A DNA stretch of 64,000 nt from Candidatus Nomurabacteria bacterium RIFCSPLOWO2_01_FULL_42_17 (GCA_001785985.1 MFVE01000002.1:28600-92599); one strand, 5' to 3'. Positions 5,897 to 63,815 are shown, counted from the stretch's first letter. A program made the numbers and translations. Notes: generated from the letters alone by a model not told the origin.

Positions 5897-5942
5897 CCTC
5901 TCCCAACCCTCTCCTTACCAAGGAGAGGGCGAAGGGTGAGGT
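5897..5942. repeat. Palindromic GC-rich repeat (CCCTCTCCTT...AAGGAGAGGG...GGGTGAGG family) in the pth-lepB divergent intergenic region
   Basis: The sequence cctctcccaaccctctcctt-acca-aggagagggcgaagggtgagg is a near-perfect hairpin. The same family occurs at 8201, 63322, 63381 and 63780. Confidence 0.7.
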
Positions 5943-6003
5943 GAATTTATTACAAAACAAATAACAATACTATGTCAAGGATTTTTTGTGTTATATTACA
6001 ACG

Positions 6004-6564
6004 ATGGAACCAACGAAAACCAGAGGTCAGTCGTTTTGGGAACTCGTACGTTTTATATTTCTGGCGCTAATAATAGTCATTCCCGTCCGCGTACTGATCG
6101 CGGAGCCATTTGTGGTTTCAGGAAATTCTATGGTCCCTACTTTTGAGAATGCAGATTATTTAATTGTAGATAAAATATCTTATAGATTCAGCGAACCAAA
6201 GAGAGATGACATTGTGATCTTTCGATATCCAAATGATCCGACAAAATTCTTTATCAAAAGAATAATCGGCCTGCCACAAGAGACGGTGGACATAAAAGGC
6301 AGTACAGTAACTATAATCAATGAAAAATATAAAGAAGGATTCACTCTCAATGAACCTTATGTAAAAAATAATGCAAACAATCTGACTCATTTTGAACTGA
6401 AGAATGATGAATACTTCGTAATGGGAGACAATCGAAGCGGGAGTTCGGATTCCAGATCTTGGGGAGCGGTAAAAAGAGAGCTGATCACAGGCAAAGCCTT
6501 CTTGCGATTATTGCCGATAAAAAAACTTAGTATCTTGCCGGGCAATTATAAACAAACAGAGTAA
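6004..6564 (+). CDS. lepB: Signal peptidase I
   Basis: The protein has an N-terminal TM helix, an SGNSMVPTF catalytic Ser box and a GDNRSGSSDSRSWG box. Confidence 0.85.
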   Translation: MEPTKTRGQSFWELVRFIFLALIIVIPVRVLIAEPFVVSGNSMVPTFENADYLIVDKISYRFSEPKRDDIVIFRYPNDPTKFFIKRIIGLPQETVDIKGSTVTIINEKYKEGFTLNEPYVKNNANNLTHFELKNDEYFVMGDNRSGSSDSRSWGAVKRELITGKAFLRLLPIKKLSILPGNYKQTE

Positions 6565-6578
6565 ACAGTCAAATTAAA

Positions 6579-7880
6579 ATGAAAAAACCAACTAATAAAA
6601 ACAGGATGCAAGATATTTCATCGCCCAAAGGAATGAGAGATTTGATGAATGAAGAATATTATTCTTTTCAAGGATTTTTTGAAAAAGCGCAGGAAGTGGC
6701 AGTGTATTATGGCTTTAAACCAATCGACACTCCGATCTTAGAACACGAAGAAATTTTTACCACGGGGATAGGCGAAGGAACAGATATTGTGGATAAAGAA
6801 ATGTACACGCTGAAGACCAAAGGCGGCGACCACTTGGCGCTCCGACCAGAGCACACCGCGCCACTCGCTCGCGCCTATGTCGAACACGGAATGCAAGCAC
6901 TCCCCCAGCCAGTAATGCTTTACCAATACGGTCCGATCTTTCGACATGACAAGCCTCAGCGCGGACGCTACAGGCAATTTTGGCAATTTGATTTGGATTC
7001 ACTAGGAAACGATAAAAGCATTATGGACGCGCTGGTGATCAAAGCTGGCATGAGCATTTTAGAAGAAGCTGGAGCTTCGAGCCTTTCGATCGATATCAAT
7101 TCCATCGGAGACAAAGAATGCCGAAATGGATACATCAGAGAGCTGACAAACTACTACAAAAAGCACATTGGCCAACTCCCGGGTATTGATCGAGAACGCC
7201 TGAAGACAAATCCGCTGCGCATCTTGGACTCCAAAGAAGAAAAGACAAAAGAAATAAACGAGGGCGCTCCAGACTCGATATCTTTCCTTTGCCCTTCTTG
7301 CAAAAAACACTTCAAAGAAGTCTTGGAATATTTAGAAGAAATGAATATTCAATACAATATAAACAAAAATTTAGTGCGGGGGCTTTCCTATTATACCCGC
7401 ACTGTTTTTGAGATAATGGAACAAGGAGGCGCTGAGGATGGCGGAGCGCTCGCGCTGGCTGGCGGCGGACGCTATGACTATCTAGCTCGCCATCTTGGAA
7501 GCAAAAAAGATGTGCCAGCAGTCGGGATTTCGATCGGAGTAGACAGAATAGTCGCCTCGGCTTGGTACAAGAAATTAACGCCGCGCATATTAAAAAAGCC
7601 GAAAATTTATTTCATCCAGCTCGGGTCTGAAGCAAAATTGAAAAGTTTGAATATAATTGAGATATTAAGGAAGGCGCATATCCCCATCGCCCAATCGCTT
7701 TCCAAGGATAGCCTAGGCTCGCAATTGGCCATCGCCGAGAAGCTGGCTATCCCTTACGCGCTCATCTTCGGAGTCAAAGAAGCCCTAGATAATTCAGTGA
7801 TAGTGCGAGATATGAGCAATCGATCCCAAGACACTGTGAAATTGCCGAAGCTTCTGGAATATTTGAAAGAACTAAAATAA
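6579..7880 (+). CDS. hisS: Histidyl-tRNA synthetase
   Basis: A class II aaRS with HisRS motifs (RPEHTAP, GGGRYDYL) and a C-terminal anticodon-binding domain. Confidence 0.9.
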   Translation: MKKPTNKNRMQDISSPKGMRDLMNEEYYSFQGFFEKAQEVAVYYGFKPIDTPILEHEEIFTTGIGEGTDIVDKEMYTLKTKGGDHLALRPEHTAPLARAYVEHGMQALPQPVMLYQYGPIFRHDKPQRGRYRQFWQFDLDSLGNDKSIMDALVIKAGMSILEEAGASSLSIDINSIGDKECRNGYIRELTNYYKKHIGQLPGIDRERLKTNPLRILDSKEEKTKEINEGAPDSISFLCPSCKKHFKEVLEYLEEMNIQYNINKNLVRGLSYYTRTVFEIMEQGGAEDGGALALAGGGRYDYLARHLGSKKDVPAVGISIGVDRIVASAWYKKLTPRILKKPKIYFIQLGSEAKLKSLNIIEILRKAHIPIAQSLSKDSLGSQLAIAEKLAIPYALIFGVKEALDNSVIVRDMSNRSQDTVKLPKLLEYLKELK

Positions 7881-7909
7881 AGCTAGCTTGTAGGGATTAG
7901 TAAAATACA

Positions 7910-8518
7910 ATGCTAAAAAAAATTTTACAATTTCAAAAAGAACCTGCCCGCAATGCTTCGCATAGCGATGCAGGCGGGGAAAAAATTCTGCGCCAAGTCG
8001 CGAAAGAAGTGCCTCTGCCTGAGATCACAACCATTAAAATAAAAAAAATATTAAGAGAGATGTCCGAAGCTTTGGAAAGCCAAGATGATGGCGTAGCGAT
8101 AGCGGCGCCGCAGATCGGATACTCACTGAAGATATTTTTAGTGTCTAGTAGGGTTTTGAAAGCAGGATTCGCTAAGAATCAGGAAGCATTCGAAAAAGAA
8201 CCTCACCCCGACCCTCTCCTTGTAAAGGAGAGGGAGAAAATAGTAAAAGACCTAGTTTTTATCAACCCAAAAATATCCAAACTCTCCCGTGAAAAGAAAT
8301 GGGTGCCAGAAGGCTGTCTCTCTGTCCGCCCTCTCTACGGTAAGACATTTAGATCTATCAAGGCGACAGTCACAGCCTATGATGAAAATGGCAAGAAATT
8401 TAAGAGAGGCGCCTCGGGATTGCTCGCACAAATCTTTCAGCATGAGACGGATCATTTAAATGGAATACTTTTTATTGATCAAGCCAAAGATATAAGGGAA
8501 GAGTTACCGAAAAAATAA
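7910..8518 (+). CDS. def: Peptide deformylase carrying an in-frame insertion derived from the palindromic repeat
   Basis: The three PDF motifs are present: GVAIAAPQIG, EGCLS and QHETDHLNG. The repeat copy at 8201-8235 encodes ...EPHPDPLLVKEREK... between motifs I and II. Confidence 0.85.
   Translation: MLKKILQFQKEPARNASHSDAGGEKILRQVAKEVPLPEITTIKIKKILREMSEALESQDDGVAIAAPQIGYSLKIFLVSSRVLKAGFAKNQEAFEKEPHPDPLLVKEREKIVKDLVFINPKISKLSREKKWVPEGCLSVRPLYGKTFRSIKATVTAYDENGKKFKRGASGLLAQIFQHETDHLNGILFIDQAKDIREELPKK
8201..8235. repeat. Copy of the palindromic repeat family embedded in frame in def
   Basis: The sequence is cctcaccccgaccctctcctt-gtaa-aggagaggg. Confidence 0.65.
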
Positions 8519-8519
8519 T

Positions 8520-9362
8520 ATGCAAAATTTTGTATTTTGGGGAACTCCAGACGTGGCATCCGAAACACTTGAGATATTAAAGCAAGCCGGATTTTTACCT
8601 TCTCTCATTATTACTTCCCTAGATAAACCTCAGGGACGCAAAATGCTTATAACTCCCCCGCCGGTAAAAGTCTGGGCAACTTTAAACAAGATTCCGTATT
8701 TACAACCTGAGAAACTAAACGAGGATTTTTTTAATCAGCTACAAGCTACCAGCTACAAGCTATCCGTCGTCGTCGCTTACGGAAAAATCATACCAGAAAA
8801 AATATTAAATATGCCTGAATTTGGCTCAATCAATATTCATTATTCTCTGCTGCCAAAATATCGCGGGGCTTCCCCTGTAGAATCAGCTATCTTAAATGGT
8901 GACGTAGAAACCGGTGTGACTATCCAGAAAATGGAATTTAAAATGGACTCTGGTCCGATCATCGCTCAAGAAAAAGTGAAGATATCGCCAGATGAAAAAG
9001 CGCCAGAGCTGCGCAAGAGGCTCATAAAACAAGGCGGGGAGATTTTAGTGAAAATCCTACCAGAATTTATTTCTGGAAAAATCAAACCCATCCCGCAAGA
9101 CGAAAGCCTTGCTTCCGTTTGCGGAAAAATTAAAAAAGAAGACGGACTGATAAATTTGGGAGCCGAGCTCCCAAATGTTTTATATAACAAGTTCAGAGCC
9201 TATGCCACCTGGCCGAGGATTTTCTTTTTCAAAGACGGCAAAAGAATTATCATCACTAATGCCGAACTGATAGACAATAAATTTGTAATTAAAAAAGTTT
9301 TACCTGAAGGCAGAAAAGAGATTACGTGGGAGGAATTTAAAAAGACTAATACTTCGAAGTAA
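8520..9362 (+). CDS. fmt: Methionyl-tRNA formyltransferase
   Basis: The SLLPKYRGASP formyltransferase motif is present. The start lies 2 nt after the def stop, consistent with a def-fmt operon. Confidence 0.9.
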   Translation: MQNFVFWGTPDVASETLEILKQAGFLPSLIITSLDKPQGRKMLITPPPVKVWATLNKIPYLQPEKLNEDFFNQLQATSYKLSVVVAYGKIIPEKILNMPEFGSINIHYSLLPKYRGASPVESAILNGDVETGVTIQKMEFKMDSGPIIAQEKVKISPDEKAPELRKRLIKQGGEILVKILPEFISGKIKPIPQDESLASVCGKIKKEDGLINLGAELPNVLYNKFRAYATWPRIFFFKDGKRIIITNAELIDNKFVIKKVLPEGRKEITWEEFKKTNTSK

Positions 9363-9744
9363 AAGGATTACGCTTGGAGAGGCCTTTCATCATTTTTTTG
9401 ACGCTCCTGGCTCCGCGATGCAAAAGCGTCTGACTGCGGTCTTTGTTTTTATTTATTTCATAATAGAGACTGTCTTTGATAGCATCAATGGCTTGATACA
9501 AGTCTTCTTTGTCAGCGCTGCCGTAAAATTCTTTGCCATCTATTTTGATCAAACAATCCGCGTGGAAAATTTCCCCCGATTTATGATGATTGGTAGACTT
9601 GCTCACCTCAAAATTTACCATCACTTTCCCCTGCCTTTCTTCTATCCTAGATAGCAATTTTTCCAAGTTGGTCACCCTCTTGGAAACATAGTCCTTAATG
9701 GCCTCCGTCAATTCAATATTTTTACCTTGTAGATTGATTTGCAT
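9346..9744 (-). CDS. hpf: Ribosome hibernation promoting factor (RaiA/YfiA family)
   Basis: The N-terminus MQINLQGKNIELTEAIKDYVSKRV and the overall pattern match the sigma-54 modulation / HPF fold. Confidence 0.8.
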   Translation of the reverse strand: MQINLQGKNIELTEAIKDYVSKRVTNLEKLLSRIEERQGKVMVNFEVSKSTNHHKSGEIFHADCLIKIDGKEFYGSADKEDLYQAIDAIKDSLYYEINKNKDRSQTLLHRGARSVKKMMKGLSKRNPFTSKY

Positions 9745-9756
9745 AGCTTTATTGTA

Positions 9757-11730
9757 TCATTTTTTAAGATGCCTAGTAAGAGCTTTCAAAACAATCTCAA
9801 GTTCAATTGTTGCCACACCGATTACTGTGTCTGCCGCACCATAATAAATGTAAAGGAGGTCGCCCTCGCCTTTCCGACGCTCAGGTTGTAGAGCCATACC
9901 GCACGGAAAAACAACATTATTAACGATCCCGACTTTTTCGTAAAACTCTTTTGGCTGAAATATCGGGTCCGTCGTGCGAGCTAGAACTATTGCTGGATCA
10001 TTTAAATCCAGGAGCACCGCCCCTATGCGATAAGTACTATGGCTTTTAGAAACTCCATGATAAAGAAGCAGCCAACCGGATTTTGTTTTTAGGGGCGGCG
10101 CAGAAATGCCAACTTTCGAGTTATCCCAAGAGTTTATCCTTGGTCCTATAATCCTAATGCATTTTTTCACAAACTCTGTTTTGAAATCGAGCGATTTAAT
10201 ATAATCCCCGCATAATTCATTGCCAACACGATGCAAGATGAAGTATCGCCCTTTGATTTTTTCGGGTAAAATACAGGTGTCTTTATCATCAAAACCAGCA
10301 GGAGTGATCAAAATAGGTTTTTCCCATTCCCATTTTTTTTGCAAAAAGTTTTTCTCCGTGATGGAAGTGATAGCGACTCGCGGCGGACCGATGCCATCAA
10401 AAGCCGTGTAGCACATATAAATAATCTTCCCTATTTTGGTCAGACGCGGATCTTCACAACCAGAATTAGCTCCAGCTATTTTTTTTGATTCAAACTCTTC
10501 TCTCGGGCCATAGATGGGCTCTAGTAAACGTTCGTCGATATTCACCCCATCTTTGGTTGCGGCATAGCCGATATAAGAAGTGTTGTCGTCGGAAAATGTG
10601 CGGTACAATATGTGTGTTGTATTTCGAATTCTAAGCACGGCTGGATTGAATGTCGCTTTGGCTTCCCACGGATGTTTTTTGTCGGGAGTAATGATGGGAT
10701 TTTTGTCGGAACGTTTGAAATACCAGCGAGAATTCTCTTCTCTACGCATAGTGCCAAGAAGGTCGCTCAAATTCAAATGGGCGACGCAATTTGTCATATC
10801 CGCTGCTCCGTAATAAATATAAAGAGTGTCCCCGCCTGCCAATCCGCGGGCAGGTTTTTTTATAATGGCGCCTGTTGGGAAAATCACATCGGGAACATGT
10901 CCCAAAAGTTCGTATGATTCTCGAGGAGCAAAGATCGGGCCGTGAGTAAGACCCACAATTTTAAGCGGATCATTTATGTCTAGGAGGACTGCCTCAACCC
11001 CAAAGATACGAGGGAGACCACTCCCGCCAAAATAATTTTGAATGTGTGAATATATCAAGAGCCAGCCATGCGAAGTTTTGACAGGCGGAGCGCCGACTTC
11101 GATATGGTCATAAGGAGATCTTTTAGGATCAATAACGTGCTTATCGACGTTCTTGTACCACTCTTCCCAAAATTTTGGATTCCACAATTCCTCTATCTTG
11201 TCGCATTGCGCTATAGCAATTTTTACGGGAGGCATATCTGTATTGACGGATACGATCACGGTAATCTTACCATTGATGCGCTCGGGGAACAGGGTCATCG
11301 CTTTAGCATTAAAGGGAGTGACTAGATGACGTTCCTTTATTTTTTTGAGATCTTTAGAAATAGCGACAGCGACTTTGATCCCACTAGCTTCAAATGGATA
11401 TTTAGAGAGTGCCGTATAAAATATATAATATTCTCCTTCAAAATAAGTCACCCTCGGATCTTCACAACCATAAATTTCCCATTCTTTTTCCGGTATTATA
11501 AAAGGCATTCGTTCCTTAAAATGTCTGCCATCCCTGCTTTTCCCAATCCCAATGATCGAAATCTGTTCGGGTGTACGCAGTCTGTCTACCGCCGAAATAG
11601 CGCGATAAACGCCATAAAACATTCTGCCCGCTTTGACGACACTCATATTGAAAGAGGCGTAAGCCTCCCAATAATGGTCTTTGTCCGGAACAAGAATTGG
11701 ATTGTGATGTGATCTTTTTACGACAAACAT
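9757..11730 (-). CDS. Glycosidase with two tandem GH130 (DUF377) beta-propeller domains
   Basis: The pattern NPI(I/L).P....WE....FN plus GCEDPR and IYYGAAD occurs twice in 657 aa. Confidence 0.7.
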   Translation of the reverse strand: MFVVKRSHHNPILVPDKDHYWEAYASFNMSVVKAGRMFYGVYRAISAVDRLRTPEQISIIGIGKSRDGRHFKERMPFIIPEKEWEIYGCEDPRVTYFEGEYYIFYTALSKYPFEASGIKVAVAISKDLKKIKERHLVTPFNAKAMTLFPERINGKITVIVSVNTDMPPVKIAIAQCDKIEELWNPKFWEEWYKNVDKHVIDPKRSPYDHIEVGAPPVKTSHGWLLIYSHIQNYFGGSGLPRIFGVEAVLLDINDPLKIVGLTHGPIFAPRESYELLGHVPDVIFPTGAIIKKPARGLAGGDTLYIYYGAADMTNCVAHLNLSDLLGTMRREENSRWYFKRSDKNPIITPDKKHPWEAKATFNPAVLRIRNTTHILYRTFSDDNTSYIGYAATKDGVNIDERLLEPIYGPREEFESKKIAGANSGCEDPRLTKIGKIIYMCYTAFDGIGPPRVAITSITEKNFLQKKWEWEKPILITPAGFDDKDTCILPEKIKGRYFILHRVGNELCGDYIKSLDFKTEFVKKCIRIIGPRINSWDNSKVGISAPPLKTKSGWLLLYHGVSKSHSTYRIGAVLLDLNDPAIVLARTTDPIFQPKEFYEKVGIVNNVVFPCGMALQPERRKGEGDLLYIYYGAADTVIGVATIELEIVLKALTRHLKK

Positions 11731-11733
11731 AAA

Positions 11734-12936
11734 TTATCTTTTAATAATATTAATTTTTAACTTGGAACCACTCCTTTGAGTCAGTTCTTGCAAAAATTTA
11801 TCCAAATCTGCGGTAGCGACGCAGGAAACTTTGTCCGCGCCCCCGTAATACACAAATAATTTTCCATCTTTAATAATTGCCCCGCAAGAATACACCACCC
11901 CCTCTTTGTATCCTTCGTTTTCATACCATTCATCTGGCTCCAAAATTGGCTGCTTGGAATCATAGAGAATCTTGGTCGGATCTTTCAGGTCTAAAATCAT
12001 CGCCCAGAGCTTGTAGCGATGCGTTTCACCCTTTTCCATCTTATGGTATAAAATCAGCCAGCCATATTTCGTATGAAGCGGTGTGGGCCCGACTCCCCTG
12101 ATCAACTTATCTCGCGCTCCCCACATGGGACTGCCCTGATGAATGCTATAAATGTATTTAGTCCCATCAAGTTCATCCAGACTGTCGAGGTAATCTATCA
12201 TTATTCGCGGAGAAATACTGTGCAAGATCGCGTATTTTTCTTTTCCGTCTTTTTTTATTTTTTCTGGAAAAAGCACCCAATTTTTATTTATCTGTCCGGG
12301 AGGAGAGATCAATACCGGGGACCGCCAGTTCCAGCGATGCGAAATAAAATCTTCCAAACTGATAGAAGTCAAAGTCATGCGGACAGATCCCCATCCGTCA
12401 AAAGCCGTATAGATCATGTACAGCCTATCGCCTAAAAGAGTGAGACGAGGATCCTCACAGCCGCCGCCCCATCCTCCGCCGGAGCCATAAGAGATAAGAG
12501 AAATAAGTGGAAAAGTATCTCTATTTTGTGGCGGGCAATGAAAATAGACGGGTTCTGGCAAACTTTTAGAAATCGTTACCCCATCCTTGCTCACCGCATA
12601 ACCCAAAACCGAATTATCAGAATCTCCGATTGCTCTATAAACAATGTGCACCTTGCCATCATGATAAAGGGCAGTAGGATTGAAGGTAGCTTTTGATTCC
12701 CAATATCTTTTACTGGTTGGTTCGATAATGGGATTTTTTTTAAATCTTTTGAGGTCAAGAACAGTTACCTTTCTGCCAATTTTTATAATTTTTGCAGTTT
12801 TTATTTTGCGGCGGCGAACTTCCGCCCCGACGCGACGCACTACTCGCTTAGAGCTTGGGCTCCTTTTGGCTGAAGATTTGATTCGAGATCCCGACCCATT
12901 CAGGCGTTTTGTTGTCTTTTTTTTAGGCGCGGCCAT
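11734..12936 (-). CDS. GH130 (DUF377) glycosidase with a roughly 65-aa lysine/arginine-rich N-terminal tail
   Basis: It carries KNPIIEPTSKRYWESKATFNPTAL, GGCEDPRLT and YYGGAD motifs. The N-terminus is highly basic and low-complexity (MAAPKKKTTKRLNGSGSRIKSSAKRSPSSKRVVRR...). Confidence 0.7.
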   Translation of the reverse strand: MAAPKKKTTKRLNGSGSRIKSSAKRSPSSKRVVRRVGAEVRRRKIKTAKIIKIGRKVTVLDLKRFKKNPIIEPTSKRYWESKATFNPTALYHDGKVHIVYRAIGDSDNSVLGYAVSKDGVTISKSLPEPVYFHCPPQNRDTFPLISLISYGSGGGWGGGCEDPRLTLLGDRLYMIYTAFDGWGSVRMTLTSISLEDFISHRWNWRSPVLISPPGQINKNWVLFPEKIKKDGKEKYAILHSISPRIMIDYLDSLDELDGTKYIYSIHQGSPMWGARDKLIRGVGPTPLHTKYGWLILYHKMEKGETHRYKLWAMILDLKDPTKILYDSKQPILEPDEWYENEGYKEGVVYSCGAIIKDGKLFVYYGGADKVSCVATADLDKFLQELTQRSGSKLKINIIKR

Positions 12937-13273
12937 ATTTATCTTCTATTCTGACAATATCATTTTCATCAAAATCCCCAGAAGAGATTTCCAAAATTTC
13001 CGCATCAGTAGAGGCAGCATAAACACGATGATTTGTTTTTGGTAATATTACAAATTCATCTCCGAACTTTGCATTTATGATAGATTCGCCCAAAGTAATC
13101 TCCGGAGTACCAGAAAGAACTTTCCAAAACTCAGTCCGATGATTATGATATTGCAAACTAAAAGCCTCACCCTTTTTTACAAAAATAATTTTTACAGTTG
13201 ATAAACTATTATGAGTAAACTGTCTAAAATTACCCCACGGACGCTCCTCTTGAAATGGTTTAAATTCTGACAT
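12923..13273 (-). CDS. Cupin-domain protein, mannose-6-phosphate isomerase type II C-terminal-like
   Basis: RPWGNF....SLQYHNHRTEFWKVLSG are cupin_2 / PMI type II signatures. Confidence 0.55.
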   Translation of the reverse strand: MSEFKPFQEERPWGNFRQFTHNSLSTVKIIFVKKGEAFSLQYHNHRTEFWKVLSGTPEITLGESIINAKFGDEFVILPKTNHRVYAASTDAEILEISSGDFDENDIVRIEDKYGRA

Positions 13274-13288
13274 ATTCCTAATATTGTA

Positions 13289-20429: not shown

Positions 20430-21329
20430 GTGTTCAAAATGAAATCCATAAATATCGCGCTGGTGCAAACAAAAGTTTCAGAGAATATCGAAGAAAACGT
20501 CAAAAAAACTGCGAAATTGATCGAACAGGCAGCTAAAGCGGGCGCGAAAATAGTCGCCCTGCAAGAACTTTTCCAGACGCCGTATTTTCCGCAGTGGAAG
20601 AATAAAAATAAGGATGATTATGCGGAAAAAGTCACCGGACCCACCGTCACTGCGATGAAGAAAATCGCCCGAAAGTTGAAAATTACTCTGATCGTACCAT
20701 TTTATGAAAAAATTTCCGCCCAAGGCGGACCAGCCTCTGGCTGGAAAGATAAATATTTCAACACTGCCGTTGTGATTGATAAAAATGGAAAACTGCTGGG
20801 CCGATATCACAAAATTCATATTCCCCAGGACCCGAGTTTTTATGAAAAAGAATATTTCAGAGAGGGCGAGTTGGGATACAAGATATTTTCAGTTGACGGA
20901 ATCAAATTCGCCGTACTGATCTGCTACGACCAGTGGTTCCCCGAGGCCGCCCGCCTGGCCAAGCTCTCCGGAGCGGAAATAATTTTTTATCCGACCGCGA
21001 TCGGCAATATCATCGGAGATGATGCGCCGGAGGGCGATTGGCATGACGCCTGGGAGACAGTCCAACGCGGACATGCGATCGCAAACAGCGTCTATGTGGC
21101 CGCGATCAATCGAGTCGGCAGAGAAGGACAGACGCGATTTTTCGGCCAGTCTTTTATTTCCGATCCATTCGGCAAGATTATCAAACGAGCGAGCCCGAGC
21201 AAAGAGGCAGTCCTTGTGGCCAAGCTGGATTTGGGGAAAAATAAATTTATAGAAAAAGGCTGGGGCTTTATGCGAAATCGTCGGCCGGACACCTACAAGC
21301 CCTTAGCCATAAAAACTTTGAAAAAATAA
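20430..21329 (+). CDS. aguB: N-carbamoylputrescine amidase (CN-hydrolase family)
   Basis: The carbon-nitrogen hydrolase fold, with the ALQELF, ICYDQWFPE and catalytic Cys context, is adjacent to aguA. Confidence 0.8.
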   Translation: MFKMKSINIALVQTKVSENIEENVKKTAKLIEQAAKAGAKIVALQELFQTPYFPQWKNKNKDDYAEKVTGPTVTAMKKIARKLKITLIVPFYEKISAQGGPASGWKDKYFNTAVVIDKNGKLLGRYHKIHIPQDPSFYEKEYFREGELGYKIFSVDGIKFAVLICYDQWFPEAARLAKLSGAEIIFYPTAIGNIIGDDAPEGDWHDAWETVQRGHAIANSVYVAAINRVGREGQTRFFGQSFISDPFGKIIKRASPSKEAVLVAKLDLGKNKFIEKGWGFMRNRRPDTYKPLAIKTLKK

Positions 21330-26118: not shown

Positions 26119-26217
26119 AGCAAGAGCAATTTTATAAAGTTTTTTCGGGTCCTCGGTTCCCCGGGGCCCCCCACCCCGGCCAGACCAGCTCAAAAACTTT
26201 ACAAAATTGCTCTTGCT
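26119..26217. repeat. Long inverted repeat forming a hairpin (26-bp stem, 47-nt GC-rich loop)
   Basis: The arms are agcaagagcaattttataaagttttt and aaaaactttacaaaattgctcttgct. The loop contains ccccggggcccc. Confidence 0.7.
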
Positions 26218-34123: not shown

Positions 34124-34182
34124 ACCTAGATAAAGTATATAACAAAAGGGAGAGGGTGAAAAATATGGGTGTGGATAACCCG

Positions 34183-55394: not shown

Positions 55395-55419
55395 ATAAAA
55401 ATTATACCACGATTTTCAT

Positions 55420-56832: not shown

Positions 56833-57134
56833 AATATTTTTTTCACTTTCACAAAGCCATCCTGAGCGTCCGGAAACTGCCCGATAATCAGCTCCTTGGA
56901 AAATTCTCTAGGCTCCAACACATCCTCCCGCCAAATATTTGTGAGGCTATATTCCGCCTTTACATCATCTACTTTTACTCCCTCGATCTGCTTGACGTAC
57001 TCCAAAATACCCTCCATATCCTTCAACATGGCCTTCTTTTCATCTTCTCCCAGCTCGATTCTGGCTAGATTGGCTAAATTCTCGACGTCCTTGATATCCA
57101 TATGATAACAGTATACATCAACACTTCTATCCAA
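56829..57134 (-). CDS. gatC: Glutamyl/aspartyl-tRNA amidotransferase subunit C
   Basis: A 101-aa protein that overlaps the gatA start by 4 nt. Confidence 0.75.
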   Translation of the reverse strand: MDRSVDVYCYHMDIKDVENLANLARIELGEDEKKAMLKDMEGILEYVKQIEGVKVDDVKAEYSLTNIWREDVLEPREFSKELIIGQFPDAQDGFVKVKKIL

Positions 57135-58017
57135 TCAAAGCTTTGACTCGCTCTTCTACCGGCGGATGCGTAGCAAAAAGGCCCAAAAAGACTTTGGTTT
57201 TTCTGCCGAAACCCACCCCTTTTGGATCAGCGATGTAGAGATGCGCGATGGCATTCGATTGGCGCGCCATGGGTTTGCTATATTGAGAGATTTTACGCAG
57301 AGCATTTGCCAAACCTTCCGGATAGCGAGTGAGCAGAGCCCCAGAAGCATCTGCTAAAAATTCACGCTTTCTAGAGATAGCCAGTTGAATAAGTATTGCA
57401 AAAATCGGCGCTAAGATTGAAAGAATAATCCCCACAAGCATGAGTACCCCCGCGGCCTTATTATCGCTGTCTCTCCTGCCGAAAAATAAATGTCTGGTAA
57501 AAATGTCTGCGACGATAGTGACAAAGCCCACCAGCACGACAACTACGGTCGAGAGCAGCATGTCGCGATTGCCAATATGCGATAGCTCGTGCGCGATGAC
57601 GCCCTCTAATTCATTTTTATTCAAAATCGCCAAAAGCCCCGTAGTTGCGCAGACCACCGCGTGATTTTTATCTCGGCCAGTAGCAAAAGCGTTCGGCGCT
57701 TGATCTAACACGACGTATATTTTCGGCATTGGCAATCCCGCAGTGATAGAAAGATTTTCCACACTGGTATACAAGTCAAAATATTCTTCTCTCTTTGCTT
57801 CTTTTGCCCCAGAGAGCTTCAAGACGATCTTGTCCGAATACCAATAGGAAAAAAAATTCATCAAAACGCTAAAAATCACAAAGAAATACAATATATTCGG
57901 ATTGTTGTAATAAAAACTAAAAAACCAGCCGAAAAGAATTACCACCACAAAAAACACCGTCATGAGCATCCATGTTTTTGTGACATTTTTAGATTGATGC
58001 GTATAAAGCGTCGCCAT
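57127..58017 (-). CDS. htpX: Zinc metalloprotease HtpX (M48)
   Basis: It has four TM helices and an HELSHIGNRD (HExxH) motif. Confidence 0.85.
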   Translation of the reverse strand: MATLYTHQSKNVTKTWMLMTVFFVVVILFGWFFSFYYNNPNILYFFVIFSVLMNFFSYWYSDKIVLKLSGAKEAKREEYFDLYTSVENLSITAGLPMPKIYVVLDQAPNAFATGRDKNHAVVCATTGLLAILNKNELEGVIAHELSHIGNRDMLLSTVVVVLVGFVTIVADIFTRHLFFGRRDSDNKAAGVLMLVGIILSILAPIFAILIQLAISRKREFLADASGALLTRYPEGLANALRKISQYSKPMARQSNAIAHLYIADPKGVGFGRKTKVFLGLFATHPPVEERVKALIG

Positions 58018-58023
58018 GAATAC

Positions 58024-58950
58024 TTATTGAGACTGCATTCTATTATAACTCGTGATGACAGAGTCAATATAGGATCCGCTGCAGCCGAGATTTTGAATTT
58101 TATTTTTCTCCAAATTATTTTCTACAAAAACTCCGAGACTGCCGTAAAAGTGTATCTGGCTCGCGTATTTAACCGGATTGTCTTTGCTCGGGGCAGTAAA
58201 CGTTGGAGGGTTTTTACTTTCATCTATCGCCTTGACGATATTCACAGGACAAGAAATAGACTGGCCGGCCAATTTCTTGCCTGCTCTATCAAATAGAGTG
58301 CTGTCCAATCCATACGACAATTTAAAATTGCAAGTCTCCCCGGTTTTAATAATTTGGAAGACATCTGGAAATAGATCACTTTTCAAAACAGCTTTAGCAT
58401 TTTCGCAAGATAAAGCGCTAGTGCCTAGACAATTTAACACAGAAATATGACTTATTGTAGTTGTGGCATTTTTTAGGTCCGGCGCCGTGCTAGTCCCGCA
58501 ATCCTTTGCGCTAGTTGCATCTGACGCGACTCCATTATTGCTATCTCCCGCGGTAGACGTATCTGCGGTCTCAGGTGTTTTTGGACTAAAATAAGAAGAA
58601 AACAAGCCCTTTATATTATCTACTCCACTATTCCAGAAACCGATGATCTGCGGTTGATAGAAATACCAAACGACTAAACAAATCAAAGCTACGATAATAA
58701 AAATTAAATTTTCAGAAGTTTTTCTGGATAATTTTTTCTCACTTTTTACCTCTGGATTAATAGTGTATTGATTAGTCGCGCTTGGAGCGACAAAATTCTG
58801 CATTGGAATTGCCATTCTGAATCCTTCATTCAAGTCCACTTCGCTCCACCCCCCGTTTCTGACTAATTCGGCGCGAATATCCTCGCGCGTGCGACCTTTC
58901 GCAAACTCCCCTTTTATATATCCTATAAGTTCTGGTGTGATCATAAACAA
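58024..58950 (-). CDS. Membrane-anchored hypothetical protein
   Basis: A 308-aa protein with one TM helix and a Ser/Thr/Ala-rich linker. Confidence 0.35.
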   Translation of the reverse strand: MFMITPELIGYIKGEFAKGRTREDIRAELVRNGGWSEVDLNEGFRMAIPMQNFVAPSATNQYTINPEVKSEKKLSRKTSENLIFIIVALICLVVWYFYQPQIIGFWNSGVDNIKGLFSSYFSPKTPETADTSTAGDSNNGVASDATSAKDCGTSTAPDLKNATTTISHISVLNCLGTSALSCENAKAVLKSDLFPDVFQIIKTGETCNFKLSYGLDSTLFDRAGKKLAGQSISCPVNIVKAIDESKNPPTFTAPSKDNPVKYASQIHFYGSLGVFVENNLEKNKIQNLGCSGSYIDSVITSYNRMQSQ

Positions 58951-58975
58951 AAAAAATTTCTATTAATAAATTCGA

Positions 58976-59527
58976 CTAAAACTTTACTTCCACTGGATTT
59001 TGAGCGACATCATTGTCCGCCAAATCAAAAAATTCTTTTTTGGTAAATCCAAAAATCCCAGCTAAAATATTCGAGGGAAAAGACTCAATCTTAATATTCA
59101 AGTCGCGCACATTGCTGTTGTAAAATCTGCGCGCAGCCTGGATTTTATTTTCTGTATCAGAAAGCTCATTTTGCAGAGCCAAGAAATTTTGATTAGCTTT
59201 AAGATCTGGATAAGCTTCGGCAATAGCAAAAATAGATTTTAATGCGCCAGTGAGCATATTTTCGGCTTCGGCATGTTCCTTTGTAGGGCCTTGCGCGCCC
59301 ATCGCCATGCTCCTGGCCTTGGTCACATTTTCAAAAGCGGAAGACTCGTGCTTGGCATATCCCTTGACTGAATTTACTAAATTTGGAATCAGATCGTATC
59401 GGCGTTTTAATTGCACTTCAATATCCGCCCAAGCCTCCCCCGCGCGAGTGCGCAAAGTAATAAAGCCATTATAGATAATAATCGCCCACAGAATGAGAAC
59501 CCCTAAGACTATCAAAATGTATATCAT
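58976..59527 (-). CDS. lemA: LemA-family protein
   Basis: It has an N-terminal TM helix and a NGFITLRTRAGEAWADIEVQLKRRYDLIPNLV segment. Confidence 0.8.
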   Translation of the reverse strand: MIYILIVLGVLILWAIIIYNGFITLRTRAGEAWADIEVQLKRRYDLIPNLVNSVKGYAKHESSAFENVTKARSMAMGAQGPTKEHAEAENMLTGALKSIFAIAEAYPDLKANQNFLALQNELSDTENKIQAARRFYNSNVRDLNIKIESFPSNILAGIFGFTKKEFFDLADNDVAQNPVEVKF

Positions 59528-59547
59528 GAGTATATTGTACTACAAAT

Positions 59548-60570
59548 TTATTTAATTTCCATACCAGTCATTAAATTGCTAAAAAGGTACATAAAGTCAG
59601 TAGAATTCGCCGGAGCTTTTATTTCCACTGGGCTAGCACCGTCAATGATCACAGATAGATCCATAGTCCCAGTATTTTTCCCCGTCTCATCAGATATTTC
59701 TATAGAAGACTTCACTTGAATTGGAAGATAATTCTCCTTATGAACAAGCAATTCAATATTATGAATATCGATCATTTGGAGAGCATCTTCGATTCCGGCT
59801 GCGATCTCTAAAGCATCAACTTTCTGACCCTCTCCAGCATTTTTGACTATAACGCCCAAAAGCTCTGTCAGCATATTTTTCAATTCTGTTTTTTCTAAAG
59901 TTATACTGAAACGATAGGACGGAGATCCTTCTATTTGTCCATCCCCAAGTTTTTTAATGCGTGCTGCATTTTCATATTTTTCTACAATAGCCAGCTGCTC
60001 TTGCCTCTCTTCTTTGGAAACATTGGGAATTCCTCCTTGCTCTACTGCTTTTAATATGTCATCACTTTCCGTTCCACCAAGGTTCTTAACTAATGCTTTT
60101 AAATCCATTCTCCACCATTTTCCTTTTATAGAAGAAAGATCCATCGGGAACCCACTTAATTCATTGAGTTTTACATACAAAAGCATATCCTTCGGCATGC
60201 TTATTACTTCGGCTGCAAATAAGACAGGATCGTTGGCGAAATCTTCCAATAAAATTCTTATATTGGAAAGATATGGTTTCGTGCCGCCCAGCAGAATGCC
60301 TGCATCAGTAGAAACTACCTGGTCCAGAGAAAAATGTATTTTAGGATACACTCCCGCCGGCAGATTGTTTAGAGCAGAGAGCTCATCATCTTTGACCGTG
60401 AAAATACCATCTACCCTTTCTCGGATAAATTCCTTGGAAGCAAGTTCTGCTGAAACTTTAGAAAATATTTCTTTAAACGAATCTGTACTTTTATTGTAGG
60501 AAAAAATACCCCCAGCCACGATCAAAATCCCCAGAACAACTACTATTATTTGCGCTTTATTTATATTCAT
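59548..60570 (-). CDS. Membrane-anchored hypothetical protein
   Basis: A 340-aa protein with an N-terminal TM helix. Confidence 0.35.
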   Translation of the reverse strand: MNINKAQIIVVVLGILIVAGGIFSYNKSTDSFKEIFSKVSAELASKEFIRERVDGIFTVKDDELSALNNLPAGVYPKIHFSLDQVVSTDAGILLGGTKPYLSNIRILLEDFANDPVLFAAEVISMPKDMLLYVKLNELSGFPMDLSSIKGKWWRMDLKALVKNLGGTESDDILKAVEQGGIPNVSKEERQEQLAIVEKYENAARIKKLGDGQIEGSPSYRFSITLEKTELKNMLTELLGVIVKNAGEGQKVDALEIAAGIEDALQMIDIHNIELLVHKENYLPIQVKSSIEISDETGKNTGTMDLSVIIDGASPVEIKAPANSTDFMYLFSNLMTGMEIK

Positions 60571-60591
60571 AAATTTGTTAATTATATTATA

Positions 60592-61494
60592 TTATTTTCT
60601 ATCCTGCCATTCCTTGATCCAAACCAGCATCGGTGAAGCAAAGAAAAGCGATGAATAGATGCCGAAGAAAAGACCGATGGTCAGAATAAAGGCAAAATTC
60701 TTTGTCGTTTCCGGACCAAAGAAATAAAGCGGCACCAGTACGCCGATAATAGTGAGAGTAATGTTGATGGAACGGACGATGGTCTCCTTAGTGCTCTTGC
60801 CGACTGTTTCCGCAAAATCTTTTTGCTCTTCGTCTCGTAAATTTTCTCTGATCCGATCAAAAACGACGATCTTGTCATGAACAGACAAGCCTAAAATAGT
60901 CAGTAGCGCTAAAACGAAAAGCGTATCCACCTCCGCGCCCGTATAGTGAGACACCAAGGCAAAAATCCCAGTCGGAATGATGATGTCATGGAGAAGTGTG
61001 ATAATGGTGATGATTCCGTATTTCCACGATGGCACCGGTTTTGAGACTTTGCGAAAAGCGTAAGTGATAAAAAGAATAATCGCGATAATAACAAAAATCA
61101 TGGAAAGAATCGCTTTGCGCGCCAGTTCGCTCCCGACCGACGGACCGATAGAAGTATAGCTTTTCTCTGTGGCATTATATTTCCCCGCCTTTGACCAAAA
61201 TGCCAAAATCTTTTGATGTTCCTCTTCCGTTAGATCCCTAGTCTTGATGAGATATCCCAAGTAACCATCGCCTCCCGTGGGCTGAATGAGAGCCTGGTTG
61301 ATACCAAGAGAATTCAAACTATTCTGGACAGAATCGGCCTCCGGACGATCTCCTACGAAATCTAACTCTAGGAGTGCTCCCCCTTTAAAATCGATCCCGA
61401 GTTTTAAGCCGAAAGTAAAGATAAAAACGATAGAGACGATCATTAGGATGACCGAGAGGGCAAGGAATATTTTTTTGTATTTAACGATAAACAT
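60592..61494 (-). CDS. secF: Protein translocase subunit SecF
   Basis: It has six TM helices and lies downstream of secD. Confidence 0.85.
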   Translation of the reverse strand: MFIVKYKKIFLALSVILMIVSIVFIFTFGLKLGIDFKGGALLELDFVGDRPEADSVQNSLNSLGINQALIQPTGGDGYLGYLIKTRDLTEEEHQKILAFWSKAGKYNATEKSYTSIGPSVGSELARKAILSMIFVIIAIILFITYAFRKVSKPVPSWKYGIITIITLLHDIIIPTGIFALVSHYTGAEVDTLFVLALLTILGLSVHDKIVVFDRIRENLRDEEQKDFAETVGKSTKETIVRSINITLTIIGVLVPLYFFGPETTKNFAFILTIGLFFGIYSSLFFASPMLVWIKEWQDRK

Positions 61495-61500
61495 GGTTTA

Positions 61501-61535
61501 GTGGAAAGTTATAAAGTTCATAAAGTTGAAAGTCA
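61501..61535 (+). repeat. Dispersed AAGTT-ATAAAGTT motif, copy f, between the secD stop and the secF start
   Basis: The sequence is gtggaaagttataaagttcataaagttgaaagtca. Confidence 0.7.
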
Positions 61536-62894
61536 TTTTGAAAAGCCGGAACTGAATAAAAATCGGGTTAATTTATTGCTCTTCTTAATGCCCAAAGCGA
61601 AAAGGAAAATTCGAGAAACGGTAATCGCCGAGAACATTGAAACCAAAACACCCAAGCCAAAAGTCAGCGCAAATCCCTTGATAAGTGGCGTGCCCAGCCA
61701 AAACAGAATAATAGAGGTGATGATACTGGAGGTGTTTGAATCCCGCACAGATGTCCAAGCTCTCTTGAAACCATCATGGATGCCATCGTGAATATTGTGT
61801 CCTTTTCTTATTTCTTCTTTCATTCTTTCGAAAATAAGCACATTCGCATCCACCGCCATTCCGAGAGATATGATAAATCCGCCGATACCGGCCGCGGTCA
61901 AAGTTACCGGCAGAATTTTGAAAATAGCTAGAAGGATCGCGGTGTAAAATGAGAGCGCCACGACTGCGATCAGTCCAGGCAATCGATACCAGACAATGAG
62001 GAAGATAGCCACCAATATGAATCCGATGACAGCTGCTTTCACTCCAGCCCGGACAGCCGACTCTCCGAGAGTGGCTCCGATAGTCTGAGTGGAGAGCAGG
62101 GTGATCGGCACCGGCAAAGCGCCTGAATTTAATCTGCCCACCAAGAGTTTCGCTTCCTTGGGAGTAAAGTCCCCCGAGATCACTGCCTGCCCGCCGGTGA
62201 TTTCTTCACGAACTATCGGAGTAGATACCGGCGCACCGTCTAAATAAATCGCTACTGTTTTGCCGATGCTGCTTCTGGTGATCTCTGCAAAAAGTTTTGT
62301 GCCCGTTTCATCAAATTGCAAACTTACTATCGGCTCGCGAGTATTTGGATCAAATTCTAAAGTCGCTCTCTTTAAATATCGGCCAGTAAGTTCGGTAGCA
62401 ATAAATTGAGGACCGATGTCTACATTTACCTTGCCATCTTTAATTGTCGCCTTTTGCGGAGCTCCCGTAGGTGCCTCTATCTTAAATTCCAAGACTGGAG
62501 TCTGCCCAATCATTTCCACCGCTTTTTTTACATCAGTCACTCCAGGCAAATCAACAATGAGCTGCTCGCCCCCACCGGAGATGATACTGCCATGCTGCAC
62601 CTGAACCACCGGCTCGGAAACTCCGAAAAGATTCACTCTGCGTTCTATCACATCCCGAAGTGCATCCATCGAACTTCCCACTTCATTTGCCGGGATAGCG
62701 CTGACATCAGCTTTGTAGATCAAATGACTACCCCCAGACAGATCCAAGCCCAAGCGAAAAGGAAATTTCTTCCAGAAAGCGCCTTGAGTCTCAAAATTTT
62801 TATTCAATTTGGGCTCGGTCTTAAAAACAAAAAAAGCTACCCCCGAGCCTAAAATTAAAATTATTAAAGCCAGTATAACTCTCTTTTTTAACAT
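61533..62894 (-). CDS. secD: Protein translocase subunit SecD
   Basis: It has a large periplasmic domain followed by a six-TM SecD/F core. Confidence 0.85.
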   Translation of the reverse strand: MLKKRVILALIILILGSGVAFFVFKTEPKLNKNFETQGAFWKKFPFRLGLDLSGGSHLIYKADVSAIPANEVGSSMDALRDVIERRVNLFGVSEPVVQVQHGSIISGGGEQLIVDLPGVTDVKKAVEMIGQTPVLEFKIEAPTGAPQKATIKDGKVNVDIGPQFIATELTGRYLKRATLEFDPNTREPIVSLQFDETGTKLFAEITRSSIGKTVAIYLDGAPVSTPIVREEITGGQAVISGDFTPKEAKLLVGRLNSGALPVPITLLSTQTIGATLGESAVRAGVKAAVIGFILVAIFLIVWYRLPGLIAVVALSFYTAILLAIFKILPVTLTAAGIGGFIISLGMAVDANVLIFERMKEEIRKGHNIHDGIHDGFKRAWTSVRDSNTSSIITSIILFWLGTPLIKGFALTFGLGVLVSMFSAITVSRIFLFALGIKKSNKLTRFLFSSGFSK

Positions 62895-62986
62895 AAATAT
62901 ACAGCTATACTATCTGTTTTTGCTCAAATATGCAACCAGATAAGCACAACAACTAGGCCTTGCCTAGAATCTAGCTATATTAGAAT

Positions 62987-63295
62987 TTATTGTTGTTTTC
63001 TAAGTAAACCACTATTGATCCACTCAGAGTGATCTTTAAATTCTTCCCCATCCCATCTAACTAGAAGCTCAAGACCTTTTGTTTCTAAAACAGTTCCTGC
63101 TACTCCCATTGTTTTTAAACCACCACTATCAGTGCGTTTAACTTTGTCTCCTGTTTTTATAAACTCTGGAGGCCTCCCACCCTGAGGAAAAGGTCTAGGG
63201 TCAAAATTTATTCCCTCTCCCATTTTTCTAGTTGAACGAGGTAGCGGTTCACCCATATTTTCTTTAGACATATCTATATAATACTCCTCTATCAA
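62987..63295 (-). CDS. Hypothetical protein
   Basis: A 102-aa protein with no confident domain. Confidence 0.3.
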   Translation of the reverse strand: MIEEYYIDMSKENMGEPLPRSTRKMGEGINFDPRPFPQGGRPPEFIKTGDKVKRTDSGGLKTMGVAGTVLETKGLELLVRWDGEEFKDHSEWINSGLLRKQQ

Positions 63296-63321
63296 ACACT
63301 GTCAACATATCCGCAATACCA

Positions 63322-63360
63322 CCTCATCCCCTACCCCTTCTCCTGGAAAGGAGAAGGGGT
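63322..63360. repeat. Palindromic repeat family copy (CCCCTTCTCC-tggaaa-GGAGAAGGGG), downstream of the DUF559 gene
   Basis: It is a perfect 10-bp stem preceded by ACCTCATCCCCTA. Confidence 0.7.
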
Positions 63361-63767
63361 TATTGCACGATATCTGGAAACTTCGCCCTCTCCTTTCCAG
63401 GAGAGGGTTGGGGTGAGGCTCTTTTTAATTCAATTAAAATTTTATGAATTACCAGAGTTATATTTTTGTTAACTTCATTATTCCAAAATCTCAAGGTTTT
63501 AATTCCTAGAACCTTAAACAACTCAGCACGTTCCTTGTCATATTCCTTATTATCCAAATGCTGTGAACCATCGAGCTCGATAACCAGTAATTTTTCGCGA
63601 CAATAAAAGTCGGCAATATAATTTCCTATACTGACTTGCCTCCTCCATTTATATCCTATTTGATTATTTCTTAATTTTGACCAAAGTAAAATTTCTTCTT
63701 TTGTTTGTTTCTTCCGGAGAGTCCTGCGAATTTCTTTCTTATGTAAATTATTTACAATTCTTGGCAT
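63360..63767 (-). CDS. DUF559 (Vsr-like / restriction-endonuclease-fold) domain protein
   Basis: WRRQVSIGNYIADFYCREKLLVIELDGSQH matches the DUF559 core. The C-terminal 15 aa are encoded by the palindromic repeat. Confidence 0.7.
   Translation of the reverse strand: MPRIVNNLHKKEIRRTLRKKQTKEEILLWSKLRNNQIGYKWRRQVSIGNYIADFYCREKLLVIELDGSQHLDNKEYDKERAELFKVLGIKTLRFWNNEVNKNITLVIHKILIELKRASPQPSPGKERAKFPDIVQ
63381..63418. repeat. Palindromic repeat family copy overlapping the 3' end of the DUF559 gene
   Basis: The sequence is cttcgccctctcc-tttcca-ggagagggttggggtgagg. Confidence 0.7.
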
Positions 63768-63779
63768 CTTCGTATTTTG

Positions 63780-63815
63780 CCCCTCGCCTTTCCAGGAGAG
63801 GGGTCAGGGGTGAGG
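63780..63815. repeat. Palindromic repeat family copy immediately upstream of the DUF559 start
   Basis: The sequence is gcccctcgcc-tttcca-ggagaggggtcaggggtgagg. Confidence 0.7.

Follow-up and report, generated by a model that had tools for sequence, protein, structure and literature searches.

The present analysis concerns a short GC-rich hairpin repeat and the nuclease gene that it brackets in Candidatus Nomurabacteria bacterium RIFCSPLOWO2_01_FULL_42_17. The window, i.e., the whole stretch of 64,000 nucleotides that was analysed (GCA_001785985.1, MFVE01000002.1:28600-92599), contains five copies of this element, here called c1 to c5, and all coordinates refer to this stretch. Three copies surround the sole DUF559 gene of the window, a fourth lies in frame within def, which encodes peptide deformylase, and the fifth is found in the spacer between pth and lepB. 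This number and distribution, with two copies downstream and one upstream of the DUF559 gene, had been given in a preliminary description of the sequence and were confirmed here.

The solo copy c1 (5897-5941, no strand assigned) occupies the pth/lepB spacer and is two-sided, reading CCTCTCCC aa CCCTCTCC ttaccaa GGAGAGGG cgaa GGGTGAGG. The def copy c2 (8201-8236) lies on the minus strand, which is its G-rich strand and reads CCCTCTCC tttacaa GGAGAGGG tcg GGGTGAGG. At the nuclease gene, c4 (R_d1; 63386-63418, plus strand; CCCTCTCC tttcca GGAGAGGG ttg GGGTGAGG) overlaps the 3' end of the open reading frame (ORF), while c3 (R_d2; 63322-63359, minus strand; CCCCTTCTCC tttcca GGAGAAGGGG ta GGGGATGAGG on that strand) is the distal downstream repeat and inverted with respect to c4. 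Upstream, c5 (R_up; 63780-63815, plus strand; CCCCTCGCC tttcca GGAGAGGGG tca GGGGTGAGG) lies 13 nt before the ATG. When folded as DNA, all five copies form hairpins of 9-12 bp with energies of -9.4 to -16.5 kcal/mol (z -2.3 to -5.4), the values for c1 being -16.5 kcal/mol and z -5.4.

The window contains 10 occurrences of the core octamer CCCTCTCC, compared with an expectation of 1.3, and this number was reached in 0 of 100 shuffles. The outer segment CCTCACCCC, hereafter the tag, occurs three times against 0.11 expected. Furthermore, three of the five copies fall within a 494-bp span around the DUF559 gene (p = 5e-6). By these counts and this clustering a chance origin of the repeat set was ruled out. 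Fuzzy scans of the 64 kb returned exactly these five hairpin elements and no further ones; octamer matches at 34149, 59828 and 63213 are isolated, have no partner arm and were not counted as copies. A scan for 30-nt GC-rich islands yielded about 130 regions and was not discriminating, and an Rfam search gave chance matches to microRNA models only, far below the gathering scores.

The DUF559 gene (PF04480; 63360-63767, minus strand) encodes a Vsr-fold PD-(D/E)XK nuclease of 135 aa. The Pfam match covers residues 11-114 of 135 (E 4.8e-33, 113.7 bits against a cut-off of 20.6), and the structure PDB 3HRL matches the protein with E 1e-32. The residues D53, E64, D66 and H70 (D...ExDGxxH) are invariant in an alignment that includes homologs of 37-38% identity from high-GC genomes. 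The Vsr family itself (PF03852) did not match the protein at E 0.01 or better, and the name "very-short-patch-repair endonuclease" given by the Joint Genome Institute (JGI) is an automatic annotation. Its neighbours are an AAA_18 gene, PAP2, a 94-aa ORF and SecD, with no methyltransferase among them. In comparison to the ortholog at locus L003 (76% identity), nonsynonymous divergence (dN) is 0.12 and synonymous divergence (dS) 0.53, a ratio of ~0.23, and the gene is under purifying selection.

Together with its repeats the gene forms a cassette of ~494 bp (63322-63815, minus strand) in the order R_up, DUF559, R_d1, a 26-nt spacer and inverted R_d2. Here, c4 and c3 constitute an inverted doublet, and c5 on one side and c4/c3 on the other bracket the gene. 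The cassette is bounded by CCTCACCCC... and ...GGGGATGAGG, its ends being inverted copies with c3 as the right one. The ortholog locus L003 has the identical layout, and locus L017 carries a minimal version of the cassette. Between the window and L003, R_d2 is identical in 38/38 nt despite the ORF dS of 0.53, and c5 is conserved in 35 of 38 nt; conservation of the flanking repeats far exceeds that of synonymous sites in the gene they enclose. The repeat also contributes to the protein. Since the domain ends at residue 114, it is c4 and the adjoining spacer that encode the C-terminal tail. The preliminary description was right about a repeat-encoded tail and wrong about its 15 residues, since about 12 residues (ASPQPSPGKERA) come from the repeat and seven from the c4-c3 spacer. 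A repeat-encoded tail is present in nearly all of the 120 best DUF559 homologs, for example QPHPSPLLKGEGK, TSPQPSPGKER... and TPSPFQEKG.

By their base pattern, the five elements belong to the already known BoxC / PIT / TMECO family of intrastrand-triplex motifs. The preliminary description had suggested an element resembling miniature inverted-repeat transposable elements; the family is not a new, lineage-specific element of this type, and is a known motif that spans E. coli to Patescibacteria. The published pattern CCCTCNCCC-N3-6-GGGNGAGGG-N3-GGGNGAGGG is matched by 5/5 window copies. All five have the C-rich arm CCCTCNCC(C), a short loop and the complementary G-rich arm GG(G)NGAGGG, and after linkers of 2-4 nt another G-rich block in mirror image of the first, G facing G and either A or T facing A. 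Read along the G-rich strand, the order is therefore pyrimidine arm, loop, purine arm, linker of 2-4 nt and a mirror segment of G, T and A, and from this strand order and mirror segment it follows that a single strand could fold into a hairpin with a purine-motif third strand. For c1 the motif can be read from either strand. The E. coli motif CCCTCTCCC tgt GGGAGAGGG ccg GGGTGAGGG has the same grammar and nearly the same bases as the window sequence CCCTCTCC tttcca GGAGAGGG ttg GGGTGAGG. The two also share a recurrent stem mismatch CCCTCGCC, inverted doublets and locally variable loci; in c5 this mismatch (CCCTCGCC / GGAGAGGG, G-for-T) is that of the E. coli "mm" TMECO types.

This membership changes how the outer segments are understood. 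Paired outer arms, as first proposed, are found on both sides in c1 only, whereas c2 to c5 are tagged on one side. Because four copies have the tag on a single side, it is not the arm of a longer hairpin, and the CCTCACCCC/GGGGTGAGG "arm" is read as the third-strand segment of the triplex motif. In IMG/VR, the exact 17-mer CCTCACCCC-N2-3-CCCTCTCC was present in more than 120 contigs with a GC content of 0.38 to 0.73; GGAGAGGG follows it in 96 of 144 occurrences and the right-hand arm almost never, and on these grounds the repeat unit is asymmetric and far from lineage-specific.

When variant repeat families are compared, the tag changes along with the stem and remains its mirror image. Among 80 DUF559 loci (described below), the 3' flank reached a reverse-Hoogsteen compatibility of 87.5% or more in 101 hairpin sides, with a linker of 3 nt in 79 of them. 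In the tagged sides the base opposite A was T in 122 cases, A in 114, G in 2 and C in 2. The mean reverse-Hoogsteen compatibility was 0.933, against a maximum of 0.799 in 1000 re-pairings. As far as such comparisons of bases can tell, this covariation follows reverse-Hoogsteen rules, as in a purine-motif triplex. For the tag, a parallel third strand of the pyrimidine motif was considered and dropped, since it left the T-to-A change unexplained; the purine-motif reading on the G-rich strand is preferred because it accounts for the equivalence of A and T. Triplex formation by an E. coli oligonucleotide has been demonstrated in vitro by circular dichroism and nuclear magnetic resonance (PMC4666352), and for the window copies triplex folding is predicted from the covariation across families.

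The family was surveyed by Holder et al. (2015), who counted 23 copies in E. coli K-12 and 3610 in 262 proteobacterial genomes (PMC4666352). The TMECO loci were described as locally unstable rearrangement hot spots, the repeats were seen to halt DNA polymerase in vitro, and neither a transposase nor an integrase nor any other mobility function was found near the sites (PMC4666352). Neither promoter nor terminator activity was seen for PIT elements, and RNA does not support the formation of purine-motif triplexes (PMC4666352 citing Hoyne and Maher 2002 and Semerad and Maher 1994). The words "endonuclease" and "DUF" are absent from that study (PMC4666352). In our literature search, outside of which lay most subscription journals, neither a DUF559 partnership nor a mobility gene or nuclease for the repeat was found. 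The link between DUF559 and the repeat, as well as the in-frame coding copies, appear to be new.

We hold with high confidence that the association between repeat and DUF559 is strong, specific and replicated. That such a link exists had been suggested from the window, and it holds both here and across phyla. The sample consisted of 80 DUF559 loci from species-representative GTDB genomes, covering Patescibacteria, Legionella, Alphaproteobacteria, Verrucomicrobia, Chloroflexi, Desulfuromonadales, cyanobacteria and others. A canonical motif lies within 200 bp of the gene in 52/80 loci, and its density is 1.13/kb near DUF559 versus 0.053/kb in the 3-kb flanks (p = 1e-42). A sequence-agnostic detector of the triplex grammar gave 0.97/kb and 0.034/kb, respectively (p = 1e-47), although in its strict form it misses c2 (pyrimidine run >12 nt) and c5 (stem mismatch). 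Within 200-250 bp of DUF559 the enrichment is thus 21- to 28-fold over the flanks. Two control sets were run through the same detector: 80 Patescibacteria secD loci lacking DUF559 (472 kb) yielded a single motif, and 72 distant viral Vsr-like loci yielded none.

The position of the repeat relative to start and stop of the DUF559 ORF is fixed across phyla. In the commonest layout, the start is closely preceded by a copy ending with GGGGTGAGG, and the stop is overlapped or closely followed by one that begins with CCTCACCCC; inverted doublets on both sides occur at loci L085 and L061. Of the loci without the canonical motif, 28/39 have other repeats common to both flanks, which is above the control maximum. 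On inspection, variants that retain the triplex grammar are seen among them. The repeat types form blocks on the DUF559 protein tree. A Nomurabacteria relative (L220, 860-1365) has a DUF559 gene between dnaE and pth with the variant repeat AACCCCCTAA-TCCCCCTTGTCAGGGGGA in the three-copy layout of the window cassette, and at this site the genome of the window has two unrelated small ORFs instead.

In three loci, namely L205 (~2850-4900), L211 (~2850-4300) and L195 (~2850-4200), the DUF559 domain and its flanking triplex motifs lie in frame within a larger ORF. These come from two cyanobacterial metagenome-assembled genomes and a low-GC one labelled Rickettsia typhi, and the frame runs on for 1503, 870 and 846 nt, respectively. 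The cyanobacterial fused ORFs run into "...LFDYILGNPPFVGKH...", which corresponds to motif IV of N6-adenine methyltransferases. In Legionella pneumophila, DUF559-containing segments have been reported to be repeated and to be recombination hot spots (PMC12308824).

Relatives with empty sites, whose search the preliminary description had recommended, were found for the cassette (L223, L225) and for the solo copy c1 (L219). SecD relatives were taken from a metagenome scan, which shows empty sites among the matches listed and not their frequency, and these matches include neither the window contig nor the L003 type; here, DUF559 lay upstream of secD in 0 of 80 SecD relatives (46-82% identity, among the matches listed). 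In L223 and L225, the stop codon of PAP2 lies 15 nt from the secD ATG and no DUF559 cassette is present; the cassette-free relatives with PAP2 abutting secD have SecD identities of 75-82%. In the window, the segment directly upstream of secD (62895-62947, minus strand) can be aligned to the PAP2 end that is still intact in L223 and L225, and is a remnant of the ancestral PAP2 3' end and PAP2-secD spacer. This ~40-nt remnant of the PAP2 end stands beside secD in both cassette genomes (window and L003), and in both the cassette separates it from PAP2; in the window, where PAP2 is more than 1 kb away, the AAA_18 gene and the 94-aa ORF lie between them as well. Judged from this alignment, the remnant is the scar of an insertion that parted PAP2 from secD.

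Other DUF559 homologs (67-72% identity) reside in unrelated neighbourhoods, such as a pilus cluster or next to recO, and in some genomes DUF559 is inserted inside other genes. In L219, the pth/lepB spacer measures 44 bp and has no repeat. In L221 (600-700) and L220 (1900-2000), other, unrelated hairpins take the place of c1, and this spacer is generally prone to receive small palindromic inserts. In L223 (2440-2485), the closest SecD relative among the matches listed, a solo triplex motif lies on the FolD stop codon (...AQHLTP*) and again provides an ORF with its end. On the contig of the window beyond its right end, a few kb from the cassette, a LAGLIDADG_2 ORF is present (L001, 202-789), which probably is a homing endonuclease.

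In E. coli K-12, the 3' end of the DUF559 gene ycjD falls within a degenerate hairpin, with TMECO no. 9 located 168 bp downstream of the gene (p = 0.004). BoxC was first described beside envM (fabI), in the very spacer that contains TMECO no. 9. This region (L302, NC_000913.3, 1351200-1351830) further shows a ~45-nt duplicate of the ycjD 3' coding end between ycjD and TMECO no. 9, and a perfect 16-bp inverted repeat CACCTCATTCTGACAA...TTGTCAGAATGAGGTG directly upstream of ycjD. The place of the eefRABCD operon between fabI and sapF is taken by ycjD in phylogroups A, B1 and C and, as an independent event, also in ST69 and ST182 (PMC12817139). The number of TMECO copies is 19-30 in K-12, BL21, HS, IAI1, 55989 and W, 6-15 in O157, 042, UMN026 and IAI39, and 1-2 in CFT073, UTI89, IHE3034, S88 and APEC O1 (Table S7, PMC4666352). 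Altogether, ycjD is present in 3377/5426 complete E. coli genomes. With the phylogroups of the counted strains as we presume them to be, the low-count strains being B2, the 19-30 copies in phylogroups reported with ycjD versus 1-2 in B2 are taken as support for a pairing of nuclease and repeat.

The second translated copy of the repeat lies in def (7910-8518, plus strand), the product of which has the motifs GVAIAAPQIG, EGCLSV and QHETDH intact. Pfam identifies Pep_deformylase with E 1e-37, and pth and lepB were matched as well. As described before, c2 keeps the frame between motifs I and II; its 36 nt are 12 codons and encode PHPDPLLVKERE. In comparison to L221, 32 of 33 nt of c2 are identical, and third codon positions match in 10/11 cases versus 62/130 in the rest of def (Fisher p = 0.005), which suggests that the DNA sequence itself is constrained or has recently been converted. 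Compared with E. coli Def, the loop that separates motifs I and II is long and hypervariable in all Nomurabacteria orthologs. The peptide (E)PHPxPLLxKERE is present in this loop in ~30 of the 120 nearest orthologs, and the others have different repeat-like peptides, a plain loop or, in a few cases, a short one. The insertion is therefore not private to this genome. It had been reasoned that orthologs lacking the repeat should not share the loop; in part they do, since the loop is extended in them as well, often with other repeat-like peptides. The loop types are intermixed on a tree of the rest of the protein, which is of low resolution.

A second GC-rich hairpin, overlooked in the preliminary description, belongs to a different family (cctgcccgcaatgcttcgcatagcgatgcaggcgggg) and lies in frame at the N-terminus of def (7943-7978, plus strand), where it encodes PARNASHSDAGG. 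It is present or absent among orthologs, at two alternative positions, and matches L220 in 34/36 nt, third-position identity elsewhere being 41%. Modelling of the enzyme with its inserts, as had been proposed, places them in predicted disordered segments. In the AlphaFold model, the core has a predicted local distance difference test score (pLDDT) of ~90, and values below 50 are confined to residues 1-25 and 90-110, i.e., both repeat-encoded segments.

At the same loop, many orthologs (P0135, P0163, P0173, P0177, P0195, P0203 and others) share the peptide RGVSQA(D/G)EPRGSA...DSDP, which suggests a further repeat family using the same insertion hot spot; P0126, P0145, P0152, P0164 and P0168 have duplicated or nested copies. 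Outside the family studied here, other GC-rich paired hairpins are found in the window at 20702-20758 and 26129-26207, e.g., CCGCCCAAGGCGG-ACCAGCCTCTGGCTGG and GGGTCC...CCCCGGGGCCCCCCACCCCGG.

The best reading of these data, to which we give an even chance, is a compact selfish pairing of nuclease and repeat. It is favoured because it accounts jointly for the bracketing, the co-variation of repeat type and DUF559 clade, the conservation of the repeat at the nucleotide level and the presence/absence polymorphism. Here, DUF559 would recognise its cognate repeat, either folded or as duplex, and nick or cut it. Recombinational repair between dispersed copies would then keep the repeats uniform, and occasionally it would place an additional copy of the nuclease gene or of a solo repeat elsewhere. 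The solo copies in the pth/lepB spacer and the def loop would be non-autonomous derivatives, and the 36-nt def copy may persist as it keeps the frame and falls into a disordered surface loop. We infer that DUF559 cleaves the repeat and that this cleavage drives its spread. Of the original proposal that the element is mobilised by, or homes with, DUF559, the association has stood; mobilisation by the nuclease, for which neither a target-site duplication nor a transposase was found, we put at slightly under even. More tentative is the wider proposal that DUF559 proteins are structure- or sequence-specific nucleases with the BoxC/PIT triplex motif as their natural substrate, the two being a hitherto unrecognised mobile or selfish class across bacteria in which a Vsr-fold nuclease, in place of a transposase, maintains and spreads the repeat and each nuclease clade has co-evolved with its repeat variant.

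Several observations weigh against this reading. In IMG/VR, 118/120 repeat loci have no DUF559 within several kb. Conversely, 28/80 DUF559 loci have no canonical motif nearby, and the strict generic detector reports none in 36/80. No clear target-site duplication is visible at the junctions of the window or of L003, and a PD-(D/E)XK domain of 110 aa alone cannot perform strand transfer. The empty PAP2-secD site has no repeat, and therefore this insertion was not simple homing into an existing one. Since the 76% ortholog in L003 is syntenic, this cassette has been vertically inherited for some time. The correlation with copy number in E. coli comprises few independent lineages and strain phylogroups that we have assumed. 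Furthermore, DMS (dimethyl sulphate) footprinting did not reveal a stable triplex in vivo (Holder et al. 2015, PMC4666352).

The main rival explanation is that DUF559 serves its host as a structure-specific repair nuclease, which removes or processes hairpins and triplexes during replication and does not spread the repeats. By analogy with Vsr acting on mismatches and SbcCD on hairpins, both would be co-inherited since the nuclease makes the repeats tolerable. The repair function of Vsr-fold relatives and the purifying selection on DUF559 agree with this, the high TMECO number where ycjD is reported and the low one in B2 fit tolerance as well, and the polymerase block in vitro and the instability of the loci (PMC4666352) point the same way. 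However, a repair enzyme acting in trans needs neither bracketing repeats nor a copy fixed on its own stop codon, and its gene would not be expected to be present or absent, in unrelated neighbourhoods and in some genomes inside other genes. We regard this explanation as unlikely. Passive hitch-hiking, in which recombinogenic, fragile motifs act as landing pads that retain small transferred genes, or are carried along as flanks with no recognition involved, is less likely still. It would draw on the TMECO loci being rearrangement hot spots (PMC4666352), on ycjD replacing the eef operon at a variable locus (PMC12817139) and on the several unrelated hairpin families gathered in the def loop and between pth and lepB; were the cassette to travel together with its flanks, even the co-variation of type and clade could arise by descent alone. 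Yet the 3-kb flanks, with their many genes and spacers, contain 21-28 times fewer motifs, the repeat keeps its place relative to the ORF ends across phyla, and no other gene family was seen to be so bracketed in the loci examined.

Expression control, i.e., hairpins acting as terminators, insulators or mRNA stabilisers that limit a potentially toxic nuclease, with solo copies acting alike elsewhere, would suit the stable stems and their location directly before the start and on the stop of the DUF559 ORF. We consider it improbable, since a U-tract is lacking, copies occur in both orientations and within coding sequence (def), and a conserved third-strand segment has no role in a simple terminator; in addition, PIT elements without promoter or terminator activity and purine-motif triplexes that do not form in RNA (PMC4666352) speak against it. 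The lowest probability is assigned to another enzyme encoded elsewhere, such as a RAYT or IS200-type HUH transposase, mobilising the repeats with the position of DUF559 being incidental. A hairpin with a short tag does resemble the HUH substrates at REP and IS200/IS605 ends, but no such gene was seen beside the repeats in any locus examined, the window itself not having been scanned exhaustively for transposases. Likewise, none of the TMECO sites surveyed by Holder et al. had traces of a transposase or integrase nearby (PMC4666352), and DUF559 is the only consistently adjacent gene. Each of these last three, hitch-hiking, expression control and an unseen transposase, is less likely than both the selfish pairing and the repair nuclease.

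In E. coli, knowledge of BoxC/PIT/TMECO repeats dates from the early 1990s, and thousands of bacterial copies exist without an assigned function or spreading mechanism. DUF559 (YcjD, PDB 3HRL), in turn, is a very large family of uncharacterised nucleases. If the partnership is true, it would provide the first concrete and testable function for both, explain the genome instability at triplex-motif loci and represent a nuclease-driven counterpart to the REP/RAYT model; it would also point to DUF559 as a protein from nature with a possible recognition of non-B DNA. From def it is apparent that such elements can sit in frame within an essential enzyme, which is relevant for the annotation of "PHPSPLLKGEG"-type low-complexity peptides in the proteomes of candidate phyla.

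Compared with known systems, the cassette shares features with free-standing homing endonuclease genes (including the Vsr-like EDxHD family; I-Bth0305I, PDB 3R3P), which likewise are small ORFs of the Vsr / PD-(D/E)XK clan; DUF559, Vsr and 3r3p are listed in one clade. Common to both are a conserved insertion site that is empty in close relatives (here L223 and L225) and the lack of an own promoter. In contrast, DUF559 lies outside introns and inteins, its brackets are dispersed repeats and not the halves of a unique target, and the empty PAP2-secD site shows no repeat that could serve as target. Rickettsia palindromic elements (RPE) and the GC clusters of yeast mitochondria are also short GC-rich palindromes in AT-rich genomes that lie in frame in surface loops; however, they are unrelated in sequence, longer (RPE 100-150 bp), and have neither triplex grammar nor a nuclease partner.

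In the REP/REPIN-RAYT system, too, a single-copy enzyme gene is flanked by short tagged hairpin repeats, the repeat is dispersed as solo copies or inverted doublets and its type co-varies with the enzyme lineage. Here, the enzymes differ, RAYT being an HUH Y1 transposase (PF01797) and the flanked gene of the cassette a PD-(D/E)XK Vsr-fold DUF559. The repeats differ as well, since REP tags are GTAG or CGTC and REP sequences are species-specific, whereas the triplex motif is nearly identical across phyla. BoxC/PIT/TMECO itself had previously been described from Proteobacteria and cyanobacteria only, as strictly intergenic and without an associated gene (Hoyne and Maher 2000, 2002; PMC4666352). 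In the window, by contrast, the motif occurs at low copy number in a Patescibacteria genome of 40% GC, two copies are part of coding sequences and read in frame (in def and in the tail of DUF559) and the motif is tied to a nuclease gene. With c2 within def and c4 within the DUF559 ORF, intergenic placement is a property of the E. coli copies and not a defining feature of the motif, and the window copies are new members, in a new phylum, of a known repeat.

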